DNA of 61,145 bases. Origin: a virus. Shown one piece after another: positions 41,824 through 59,963 of the stretch. The position numbers and the translations under genes are program-made. Positions within the stretch are counted from its first letter, which is position 1. The number at the start of each line of letters is the position of its first letter. The notes below the pieces were generated by a model, which had not been told where the DNA came from, ran no database searches, and saw only the letters and a list, made by a program, of their open reading frames with translations. The stretch lies in the UHGV virus genome UHGV-0030196; one strand, 5' to 3'.

Positions 41824-44800
41824 TTAAGCCGCATCGGCGATTATTTTACGTAGTTCATCTACCGAGTAACGCGTAGATACCATCCATGCCGGACGGTCAA
41901 AGTTCACATCAGCAACCGGGTTTGCTTCAAAATTCCAGAAACGCCCGCCAATCTTCTTAATCGCGTCCTTGGCGTTCCGTATTGTCGAGGATCCGGGCTG
42001 ATCGGCAATGAGATAAACGGCACCCACATCTTCACTGACACTCCACCAGCGCCCGCGTACACGGGCTTTAGCGCGAATCGGCTTATCATTAACCACAATG
42101 ATATAATCATCGTTCGCAGCTTCTTCAGCTCTGGCTTCAGCCACTGCCGCCTGCTCTTCTCTTTTGCTTTCAGCCTGCTCAAGTCTTTCTGCGATCTCTG
42201 ATTCGGTGGCTCCGCCGTTTTTCAGCGATACATAGTCTTGCCACGTTGCCGATTTGAGCGCATCTGGTAACTCATTCACATAGTCCCCGTCTTTCAAAGC
42301 ACGAGCACGGCGGACAGCCATTTCGACCAGGCGGTTAACGGAAACAGCATCAGCAAAATCGTCCTTACTAATGTGTTTTTCATCAAATGCATTGATGACA
42401 GCCCCCACCTTAATCCACTGCGCTGCTGGCGAATCCAGAGGATTATCGGCCTGAACAATGGCTAATTTCGCTCCATCGACACCATTATTAGCCAGCTGCT
42501 CCAATGCCGACCAGCCATCGGCATCGCTGAGTGATTTATATTGCTCAAACAATGCATCGCGCCAGGCCACCAGCGCAGCTCGTGTTTTCTCAATTTTCGC
42601 CGTAATTTTCGCGGCCTTCACCTGATTAAACATCCGTTCAATGTCATCAGTGTTGCTAAAGGCTTTCATCCTGCCCTGGAATAAACGGTATGCCACCACG
42701 GTCTTCCAGAAAGATTCCAGCCCTTCTCCGGACGGTTTACGGAACAGGCTAAGAATATCTTCAGAAGTAACTTTATTAAGTGAGCGACCGGACAAACCAC
42801 GCCCTGCCATCCAGTTTTCAAACTCCTGGGAAACATCATCCATCGTGGCCTGTGCCCCCCATGCCTGCATTCCCTGGATGTAATCATATCCATACAATGC
42901 CTGGAGGAATCCCTCGCCGTCCACGACATTCAGCGGGTTATCACTGGCTTGTATTTTTGCCACTTCACGCTTCAGCGCCTCATCGTTGCCATCAGGGTAA
43001 ATCCACCGCTCAGGCGCTATATCCGATGCTCGCCCGATTTTTTGACCTATTACGCCATCATAAGCCGATGACAGTGCAATCTGACCATCATCGGTGCGAT
43101 AAGCCCAGTATTTAATAGCTGAACCACCGCCCCATACTCTACCAGGCTTCCCGGCAGTGACATTCATTACCCCATTGCGAATAGCATCATAGAACTGATC
43201 GCGCGTAAGTGTTGTTGATAGCTGGTGGCATTGAACACCACGTGCAGCTGTTTCACGCGATTCTGCAACTCCCTCTTCAAAGGTTACCGATTCAATTATC
43301 AGGTTAAAGGGCAAAAATAATGCCGTCCCCGGAGAACGAGAGTAACGACTAGCCACATCCAGCCAGGATATGCGGCACGTACACCCGCCCCTTTCCGCAT
43401 CAATGGCGGTAACACGAACAATTGCTGTCGTATTGTGATTCTCATCGATGATCGCGCGATAATGGCTGCCCTTGTGCAACAAGATATTTTTCTCAGTGCG
43501 TACATACTCCTGTGGGTTCTGCAATACATCGGCATCAAGCTCCAGAACCCCGGCTTTAATCGCACGTTCCAGATCACCACGAGAACGTTTCATAACGGTG
43601 TCAGCGTCTTTAGCTCTGGTGATCGCAAAGCGTAGCTCCCGCACACGTTTTCTGTAGTCTCGCAACTGTTCCAGAACATATTTCTGCCCGTTCCTGTTCG
43701 TCCCCGCTTTAATCAGGTCGTCAAGATTGCGCTGGTAATGCTCTACCTGCTCCATCGCGCTTTTCAGTTCTGTCTCCATCATGCCGATATCTTTCCCGGC
43801 AGCATTCGCCGCTTTCAGGTAGTTATCGAGAGCATTATTGGCTTCGCGTAGGGCTTTCAGTTTCAGACGTTCTTCACGCTCTTGCGCCTGACGACTCATG
43901 ATTGCACGGCGTTCTTCCGGATTTGCCGCCAGCATAATGGCGCGTTCATCTGCGTCATCCGCATCACCATTGGCGATCTCTGACATGTCGGAGGTCATCA
44001 CCATATTGATCCAGTCCTTCTTACGTTTCAGCGTATCCAGACGGAAGTCATCAAATGTGCCTTTGCCACAATAGTAGTGAACATTGACCTTTTCTTGTGG
44101 TGAGCCTACCCGAGCGCCGCGCCCATTACGTTGGTCGATACTGGCAGGAGTCCAGGGTAGTGTCAGATGGTGGATATCGGTTGTCCCGATGTGCAAGTTA
44201 ATACCTACTTCAGCCTTCTTGTTACAGATTATGATGCGCGTGCGACCTTCGTTATAGTCGGCGGCAATACCTTCCATGCCCTCAAGGCCAGCATCATTTT
44301 TAGCTGAGAGATAATCCTCATATTGGGCAAGTTTGCTGTAGTAGGTTTCCCATGCACCTTCTTTGTATTCACCGTTTTTATTTGGCGTAGGTTCAGTCGG
44401 CTTATTCACCTTCTTCAGCTTGACGCCGCCAGCCTGGCTAACTGTCGTCGCATTGATAATGCCTATCTCCTGCTCCGGCATTTGCAGTGCACTGGCAATA
44501 ATACGGCGCAGCTTCTGGTGCTGGGCTTTTTCATCAATGAAGACGATTTGTTTACCGTTCTTCAGACCTTCACGAAGGTTTTCGATCAGCGCGGCATACT
44601 TCGGCGGGATGGGGTGTGATACCTGCTGCATATCAATACCGGCAGCCGCAATGGCCTTCAGTATTTCAGCTTCCAGTTCAATGCCAGCACGTATTTCAAC
44701 ATGCGACGGATGTTCGCTAAAGGTGGTCTTCACTACCTTGCTGGTACGCGTACTGACCAGCCCACCAGCGCCATCTTCTTCGGCCTCGTCTGCATCATCT

Positions 44801-59637: not shown

Positions 59638-59963
59638 TATTTCTCTCCACCTTTTCCCCCATTCGCTATTACGCTTAAGAGATTCAAGACGTTACTAGCT
59701 CTGGACTTCAAGCCCTGTAAAATTTCACTACCGTTGTTACTGGCAATCAGAACAACGCAGAAAATGATACCTTCAGGCCATTCTTGGCTAACCGCCACCC
59801 CATACCCCGCAAGCCCGGCTGTTACCGCAGTAAACAATTCACTCGCAAGATTGAGCAAGGACGCAGAAATGCGCCCGTCTCTAACTCCGAGAAGGAATAC
59901 GCCGGTTCCACTTAGTAGGGATGTTATGACTACTACAGCCAGATTTTCATAATCTGCAAACAT
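59637..59963 (-). CDS. Holin-like small membrane protein (108 aa; LydA-like)
   Basis: Multiple TM helices, charged C-terminus. Confidence 0.4.
   Translation of the reverse strand: MFADYENLAVVVITSLLSGTGVFLLGVRDGRISASLLNLASELFTAVTAGLAGYGVAVSQEWPEGIIFCVVLIASNNGSEILQGLKSRASNVLNLLSVIANGGKGGEK

Follow-up and report, generated by a model that had tools for sequence, protein, structure and literature searches.

Homologs of the P1 defence against restriction proteins in an 18-kb region of a D6-type P1-like phage-plasmid

The Dar ("defence against restriction") system of bacteriophage P1 has already been dissected by genetics, proteomics and cryo-electron microscopy (cryo-EM). Its six Dar proteins are components of the virion (PMC9024508). 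DarA and Hdf determine head size and are required for the incorporation of the other Dar proteins, DdrA antagonises EcoA, DdrB and Ulx help in the loading of DarB, Ulx in its localisation to the capsid, and DarB, whose first 30 residues suffice for capsid targeting, inhibits EcoK and EcoB (PMC9024508). By cryo-EM, 55 DarA-Hdf pairs were found on the inner surface of the P1 capsid, touching the DNA and gone after ejection, with ordered loading and co-ejection (PMC12810830). The phage-plasmids of P1 subgroup 2 (P1g2) include phage D6 and plasmid NZ_CP066033 (Pfeifer et al., PMC10879196). In this study, we report the analysis of the region from 41824 to 59963 of the virus genome UHGV-0030196, of which the whole stretch of 61,145 nucleotides is referred to as the window. 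This 18,140-base region very probably represents the version of the P1 Dar system that belongs to the D6 lineage (P1 subgroup 2), set amid genes for lysis, head formation, immunity and lytic replication, with its function assigned by analogy with P1.

This reading is directly supported by homology, by the conservation of domains and motifs, by gene order, by a C4 RNA with its targets and by the enrichment of an operator-like motif. The assignment of the genes as Dar homologs is held with high confidence from sequence comparison; the anti-restriction function itself, which is transferred from P1, is somewhat less certain. The DNA of phage D6 (MF356679.1 positions 12283-31478) is 95.8% identical across 100% of the region, and the best plasmid matches are 96.7-99.0% identical to it (96.7% for NZ_CP066033). 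At least 80% of the region is covered in 101 plasmid records, that is, in about 100 Escherichia coli plasmids. Of 5426 complete E. coli genomes, 93 (about 1.7%) carried a full-length D6-type darB, and 368 of the 374 places matching this gene were plasmid-borne. The whole window is colinear with D6, first with positions 61500-91159 and then with 1-31890, at 85-98% identity, and its gene order along D6 is cre, the rox site, c1, pacB/pacA/lpa, a tRNA cluster, the pmg genes and the 18-kb region, with its end at cin. Given this colinearity, the element is a D6-type P1-like phage-plasmid, a plasmid prophage of E. coli of about 90 kb. The D6 records used were MF356679.1 / NC_050154.1, and the gene identities of D6 were taken from the GenBank annotation, in which P1-like ulx, darB, icd, repL, pro, prt, ddrB, ddrA, darA, hdf, lydB and lydA are named here. 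The locus is thus an annotated and common gene block of a known lineage and, as a discovery, ordinary.

Homologs of the P1 dar genes

BLASTP searches were run against the P1 proteins, as translated from its reference genome, and domains and families were sought with Pfam and PHROGs. A significant match to P1 was obtained for every gene named (E-values from 5e-20 to 0). All coordinates are those of the window, and features lie on the minus strand unless marked otherwise. The largest open reading frame (ORF) of the region, at 41824-48663, codes for 2279 amino acids (aa) from a TTG start codon, with the ribosome-binding site GAGGGGG upstream. It must be considered real because an uninterrupted frame of 6.8 kb cannot be due to chance. 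Its product is 42.9% identical to P1 DarB over 2017 alignment columns (aa 1-1953, E=0) and 95.1% identical to DarB of D6. An N6-adenine methyltransferase domain of the gamma class is located at about aa 91-290 (47794-48393), with the SAM-binding motif I LEPSAGTG and the catalytic motif IV GNVPFG, and is followed at about aa 822-1642 (43738-46200) by a helicase region of superfamily 2 (SF2)/SNF2 type, which contains the Walker A sequence GTGLGKTT, the motif II DEGH at residue 1042 and Helicase_C at 1464-1520. The four motifs are conserved in P1 DarB, LEPSAGTG and GNVPFG without any change. This bears out the preliminary description of the locus, made from the sequence alone, which had recognised in this ORF the combination of N6-adenine methyltransferase and DExH helicase motifs known from P1 DarB. 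In Pfam, SNF2-rel_dom (E 1e-13), ResIII and Helicase_C scored above the cut-off; in PHROGs, a DNA methyltransferase family was matched with E=0, and in the PDB the methyltransferase domain had a weak match to the methyltransferase subunit 7eew of a type I restriction-modification system (E 9e-4). No Pfam or PDB sequence match was obtained for the linker at aa 290-820. The automatic annotation of NCBI (PGAP) calls the D6-type DarB an "SNF2-related protein".

Just downstream of darB lies a homolog of ulx (41353-41787, 144 aa; orf14 of D6), with 47.8% identity to the P1 protein (E 4e-45) and a match to the Ulx-like anti-restriction family of PHROGs (E 3e-58). The remaining dar genes are found at the other end of the region, where the P1 order lydA-lydB-hdf-darA-ddrA-ddrB is kept on one strand. 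The series begins with lydA (59637-59963), the 108-aa product of which is a holin homolog with 43.4% identity to P1 LydA (E 8e-23) and a weak Pfam holin match, and with lydB (59191-59637), coding for a 148-aa homolog of the holin antagonist (34.1% identity to P1 LydB; Pfam LydB, E 1e-24). It continues with hdf (58581-59201; 206 aa, the longest ORF reaching 59216 with 211 aa), of which the product is 39.6% identical to P1 Hdf and matches Pfam DarA_N (E 6e-18) and the Hdf-like family of PHROGs (E 2e-76), and with darA (56651-58588; 645 aa, the longest ORF reaching 58627 with 658 aa), with 38.6% identity to P1 DarA (E 1e-139) and both DarA_N (E 5e-40) and DarA_C (E 9e-19) of Pfam. Next are ddrA (56277-56651; 124 aa, 33.3% identity to P1 DdrA, E 5e-20; DdrA-like in PHROGs, E 3e-49) and ddrB (54797-56194), a 465-aa ORF corresponding to the N-terminal half of the P1 protein, with 64.2% identity and the Pfam domain ddrB-ParB (E 2.6e-42). 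The start of ddrB is probably the TTG at 56182, which gives 461 aa. Two head genes complete the series: prt (53050-54732), for a portal protein of 560 aa (50.2% identity to P1 Prt; PHROG portal, E 6.5e-230; weak match to Pfam Portal_T4), and pro (52038-53036), for a head-processing protease of 332 aa (43.0% identity to P1 Pro, E 1e-83; 99% to D6). RefSeq and PHROGs call the Pro homolog a "tail fiber protein".

The holin-like gene (108 aa), the ORFs of 148, 206, 645, 124 and 465 aa and the portal- and pro-sized genes that the preliminary description had placed upstream of the giant ORF on the same strand are all present in the ORF list, and the resemblance it had drawn to the P1 lydAB-hdf-darA-ddrA operon is confirmed by BLASTP, Pfam and PHROGs alike. 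The BLASTP comparison with the Dar, Hdf, Prt and Pro proteins of P1 that it had proposed as a check found homology, so the objection it had anticipated, a lack of homology to Dar proteins, does not hold. A tblastn search of the window for KilA, Ant1, Lyz, LydC, LydD, Lxc, Hxr and Ssb of P1 found none of them.

With respect to transcription, a hairpin terminator that would act in both directions (51900-51923, a stem of 10 bp and T-runs on each strand) lies between pro and repL; its location right after pro fits a transcription unit ending with this gene, and a single operon from lydA to pro is plausible from this arrangement. Upstream of darB, a candidate sigma-70-like promoter (48732-48759, TTGACG-16-GAAAAT, 9 of 12 consensus positions) was detected by a consensus scan only, and the P1 reference has a predicted promoter, PdarB, at the analogous place.

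Several observations weigh against the assignment to the Dar system and must be taken into account. The match of the last 330 residues or so of DarB to P1 is weak (E 2e-4 over 139 aa), and the Pfam score for N6_Mtase was 20.2 bits, that is, 0.2 bits under the cut-off of 20.4. In the 30-residue capsid signal of P1 DarB, 8 of 30 positions are identical here, and residues 6-10, which are needed in P1, differ; the signal and its partners may have co-evolved in D6. The DdrB match spans only aa 2-442 of the 995-aa P1 protein, and no copy of the C-terminal half of P1 DdrB (about 550 residues) was found by tblastn of the window; DdrB of D6 is likewise short (454 aa). When a matrix of six P1 late promoters of the Lpa type (-22 box AAGTGACTT plus -10) was applied, nothing was detected upstream of lydA or darB: the scores upstream of lydA were at most 1.7 bits and the best scores of the window were within the range of shuffled sequences. 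A search by regular expression gave the same null outcome, and a diverged late-promoter box of D6 type is possible. In addition, ddrA and ddrB are separated by 82 bp, as against 12 bp in P1, and this gap holds a GC-rich hairpin at 56255-56269 (GGGGC-loop-GCCCC, then a T-rich tract) that may be an internal attenuator and may break up the transcription unit proposed here. As late-promoter boxes of D6, two sequences upstream of lydA, the motif AACTGACTAAGT and the palindrome ACTAAGTTAGT, were also considered and were discarded, given that they were not enriched.

For the time at which the genes are expressed, for packaging and ejection, and for the anti-restriction activity with its target spectrum, we infer the following course from P1. 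The genes from lydA through lydB, hdf, darA, ddrA, ddrB and prt to pro would be switched on in the late phase of the lytic cycle. Hdf and DarA would bind to the capsid's inner face and help to fix the size of the head, with proheads that form on the Prt portal and are matured by Pro. Stepwise loading would come next, with DdrA, DdrB and Ulx and, as the last, many copies of DarB brought in by its N-terminal signal. At infection, the Dar proteins would exit the head together with the DNA, which they would shield in cis against restriction enzymes of type I. With its intact methyltransferase domain and SF2 helicase core, DarB most likely moves along the DNA as it enters, blocking or outrunning the restriction complex.

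Immunity and replication genes between pro and darB

The preliminary description had also reported a module composed of a peptidase, Rha and a RepL-like protein between pro and darB. These components were found, and they form part of an immunity (ImmI) operon and a replication unit that had been missed. Beginning at the darB side, a gene on the plus strand (48815-49300), convergent with the ImmI operon, codes for a 161-aa peptidoglycan hydrolase with a CHAP domain (Pfam E 2.7e-7) and is 100% identical to orf16 of D6. The protein is labelled "baseplate hub subunit and tail lysozyme" in RefSeq and PHROGs; it might serve in lysis, the window having no homolog of P1 Lyz. The ImmI operon ends at a GC-rich hairpin with a T-run (49306-49324, 8 GC pairs followed by TTTTTT), a strong predicted terminator. 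Its last genes are a small ORF of 65 aa (49333-49530), 100% identical to orf17 of D6 and with no Pfam match, and an antirepressor of the Rha/Roi type (49530-50237; 235 aa from ATG, the longest ORF reaching 50282 with 250 aa), which matches Pfam Phage_pRha (E 5.8e-9) and is 86% identical to orf18 of D6. No similarity of this antirepressor to P1 Ant1 was found by tblastn, and its gene is a mosaic, 77% identical to D6 at the 5' end and in part 84% identical to the other ant gene of D6. Its start is overlapped by the stop codon of icd (50237-50461), whose 74-aa product is 62.3% identical to P1 Icd (E 1e-25).

Upstream of icd is the gene of the C4 antisense RNA (50509-50594; Rfam RF01695, 68.8 bits for a cut-off of 45), with the a2 target at 50508 and the b2 target at 50479, and further upstream the a1/b1 target element of this RNA (50662-50714; RF03163, 54.4 bits for a cut-off of 46.7). 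The C4 RNA (77 nt) and the targets a1, b1, a2 and b2 do not differ from their P1 counterparts. A sub-threshold Rfam match to isrK (50620-50701, minus strand, 43.5 bits for a cut-off of 50) overlaps the a1/b1 leader of c4. By its composition, then, ImmI is here a P1-type immunity operon, with C4 RNA and icd, that carries a different antirepressor and has repL upstream without kilA. The C4 RNA would repress the translation of icd and of the Rha-type antirepressor. Since the RNA and its four targets are the same as in P1, the C4 (ImmI) specificity should be common to both elements despite a very different C1 repressor and antirepressor. The DNA from 50350 to 50721, which comprises the c4 promoter, the C4 RNA and the first third of icd, is 93% identical to P1 while its flanks have no DNA similarity to P1; therefore, this piece looks to have been exchanged recently with the P1 lineage, and it is the only such piece of the module.

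The lytic replication initiator is coded by a repL homolog (50875-51837; 320 aa, 29.4% identity to P1 RepL, E 1e-28; 98% to orf20 of D6). In its first codons, a sigma-70-like promoter on the plus strand (TTGAAA-17-TAAAAT, 10 of 12 consensus positions) is aimed at the terminator 51900-51923 (region 51803-51935). The predicted RNA, of about 98 nt and antisense to the repL leader, would fold into three hairpins (-32 kcal/mol, z = -5.5) and is possibly analogous to the P1 PaskilA antisense RNA. Three GATC sites are located just upstream, at about 51960-52000.

The operator motifs of the module were also analysed. When up to 3 mismatches were allowed, the consensus of the P1 C1 operator, ATTGCTCTAATAAATTT, had 0 matches in the window, the c4 promoter included, which argues that the operators of the window are not of P1 type. 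A different 16-mer, AAATTAAWTTTCTAAC, first spotted by reading intergenic regions, is present in 13 copies at up to 3 mismatches, when 1.56 were expected (8-fold enrichment; 0 of 100 shuffled sequences reached 13). The copies start at 2618, 12157, 12806, 17003, 28792, 29901, 30193, 34670, 38447, 38603, 39855, 50804 and 52012, and those at 28792-28807, 50804-50819 and 52012-52027 are perfect. The site 50804-50819 (plus strand) overlaps the -35 box of a sigma-70-like promoter (50778-50805), in the position of Oc4/P2c4 of P1, and 52012-52027 (minus strand) lies just downstream of the pro stop codon and upstream of repL. These two sites, which bracket repL, are the only ones within 41824-59963, and towards darB there is none even when 4 mismatches are allowed; both are kept in D6, the second with 1 mismatch. 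No copy was found in the first 50 kb of P1. Operator motifs flanking the module had been proposed beforehand; the sites are real, around repL, and they neither flank the whole module nor are of P1 type. We consider the copies of AAATTAAWTTTCTAAC candidate operators for the C1 repressor of D6 type; as with the C1 operators of P1, they are scattered through the genome, and the repL and ImmI units would each stand behind such candidates. A C1-like protein of 345 aa is coded at 30220-31257 (plus strand), and its identity of 22% to P1 C1 fits a different operator specificity. The region of this gene is 84.7% identical to D6 c1 in DNA, much below its neighbours; the repressor may represent a variation of immunity inside the D6 lineage.

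Divergence of DarB and alternative explanations

The C-terminal part of DarB, the last 600 residues or so, is little conserved between the window and P1. In a global alignment the last 640 residues are about 20-25% identical to P1, and they had no sequence match in Pfam or the PDB. In an exhaustive search of 1.84 billion proteins, the C-terminus was found only in DarB-sized proteins and at the same position (25 representatives), while a word-indexed protein search recovered near-identical DarB fragments only. An AlphaFold model of this part (mean predicted local distance difference test 83, predicted template modelling score 0.46) was uninformative as to its relatives: Foldseek gave no PDB hit at E <= 0.001, and a weak local resemblance to Tudor/SH3-like barrels was set aside.

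Nucleotide comparison with D6 and the plasmids delimited a dimorphic patch of 600 nt within this part of darB (43100-43699; about aa 1655-1855, most variable at 1740-1800). Its identity to D6 is 75-78%, for about 95% elsewhere in the gene. Among 119 plasmids, the patch was at least 99% identical in 27 and 60-80% identical (about 76-78%) in 91, with 0 plasmids at 90-99%, whereas identity over the remainder of the gene was about 95-99%; as a control, a helicase segment of darB was at least 95% identical in the D6-type plasmids. For the patch, the ratio of nonsynonymous to synonymous codon differences was 45/56 (0.80), compared with 49/210 (0.23) for aa 1-1640. The stretch of greatest variability in the patch corresponds to a small beta-rich domain of the AlphaFold model. 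From this pattern of variation, which is the basis of the proposal, it is conceivable, if doubtful, that DarB aa 1660-1800 or so (the predicted beta-rich domain, with two alleles about 23% apart in DNA) would be a swappable specificity cassette choosing the host systems to be neutralised and, together with the half-length DdrB, giving a spectrum unlike that of P1.

It must be considered, more generally, whether these are true Dar homologs of which the D6-type system counters host defences other than those countered by P1 Dar, with specificity set by the DarB C-terminus and the short DdrB. The low identity of the last 640 residues of DarB and their restriction to DarB-sized proteins, the two discrete alleles with a raised nonsynonymous share, and the half-length DdrB all point in this direction. 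However, conservation is good over the 1650 N-terminal, catalytic residues, the variable part has no assignable domain or fold, and one old recombination event could give the dimorphism without functional meaning. We therefore regard a shifted spectrum as rather unlikely. A role of the giant protein in the lysogen instead of the virion, for example as a prophage methyltransferase-helicase defence or a DNA-repair enzyme, would agree with the name "SNF2-related protein" in plasmid and genome records and with the candidate sigma-70-like promoter upstream of darB. Against it, the protein aligns collinearly with P1 DarB from its first residue, the region of the capsid signal included, ulx is directly downstream as in P1, the loading partners hdf, darA, ddrA and ddrB are all present, and no nuclease domain was found by Pfam. 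A restriction-modification or defence role for this ORF was rejected on the absence of that domain, the collinearity and the adjacent ulx, and a function confined to the lysogen is highly improbable.

A further alternative concerns the block between pro and darB, which according to the preliminary description had been inserted there. As a recently acquired foreign cassette, it would account for the fact that P1 has nothing between the divergent prt-pro and darB and carries c4-icd-ant-kilA-repL 30 kb away, for the 93% identity to P1 DNA from c4 to the 5' part of icd between flanks without similarity, and for the mosaic antirepressor. Nevertheless, D6 and about 100 plasmids have the same module in the same place and order, 96-99% identical, its flanks carry no transposase, integrase or repeats, its GC content is unremarkable and the operator-like sites are internal regulatory sites and not the borders of a cassette. 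A recent insertion is thus very unlikely. Judged by this distribution and by the lack of mobile-element features at the flanks, the module is the standard layout of the D6 lineage, rearranged relative to P1. The interpretation that we prefer for the whole region, a D6-lineage Dar system with a probably virion-borne DarB, is in agreement with these results.

Comparison with phages D6 and P1

From orf14 to orf30, D6 has the same genes as the window, in the same order and orientation, and most of the proteins are 96-100% identical. Those less alike are Ulx (92%), DarB (95%, D6 carrying the other allele of the patch at aa 1655-1855) and the antirepressor (86%). Between prt and ddrB, D6 has orf23 and orf24 (DUF4145), of about 1.1 kb, both of which are missing from the window, where the junction (54733-54796) measures just 64 bp; the last 8 residues of DdrB differ from D6 because the boundary of this indel falls in the final ddrB codons. 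D6 also has a second icd/ant module (D6 74000-75490), which is missing at 11636-11667 of the window.

In the rest of the window, five tRNA genes were found at 36120-37381 on the minus strand (Met-CAT, Ser-TGA, Thr-TGT, Tyr-GTA and Arg-TCT), while the D6 record has three (Ser, Thr and Asn). The stretches 5913-6297, 10305-11373, 14062-15777, 18360-20857, 21060-24358 and 24835-26000 had no megablast match to the parts of D6 that were compared, which left out D6 34479-41199; accessory or early genes have probably been swapped there, and two of the stretches fall on dips of low GC.

Given what is already established for the P1 system, the discovery value of the locus is small. It must be noted, nonetheless, that with labels such as "SNF2-related protein" and "tail fiber protein" an anti-restriction role is easily overlooked in plasmid surveys, and that the differences from P1, namely the short DdrB and the diverged, dimorphic C-terminus of DarB, could help to map the parts that set specificity.

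With respect to P1, all eight proteins of its Dar system are homologous to those of the window, at 33-64% identity, and ulx follows darB in both. The arrangement differs in that prt-pro adjoin darB and are divergent from it in P1, whereas in the window they follow ddrB on the same strand, and in that hxr, the lyz/lydD/lydE genes, ssb and the IS1 region of P1 are absent from the 18-kb region. Furthermore, DdrB is of full length in P1 and of half length here, and DarB has diverged at the C-terminus. ImmI and repL, which in P1 belong to the distant c4-icd-ant-kilA-repL block, are here located between pro and darB and without kilA. The antirepressor of P1 ImmI is Ant1/Ant2 and that of the window is of the Rha/Roi type, and the P1 C1 operator differs in sequence from the operator-like 16-mer. 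Common to both are an identical C4 RNA with four identical targets, the overlap of icd with the next gene, and an operator, of candidate status in the window, that overlaps the promoter upstream of c4.

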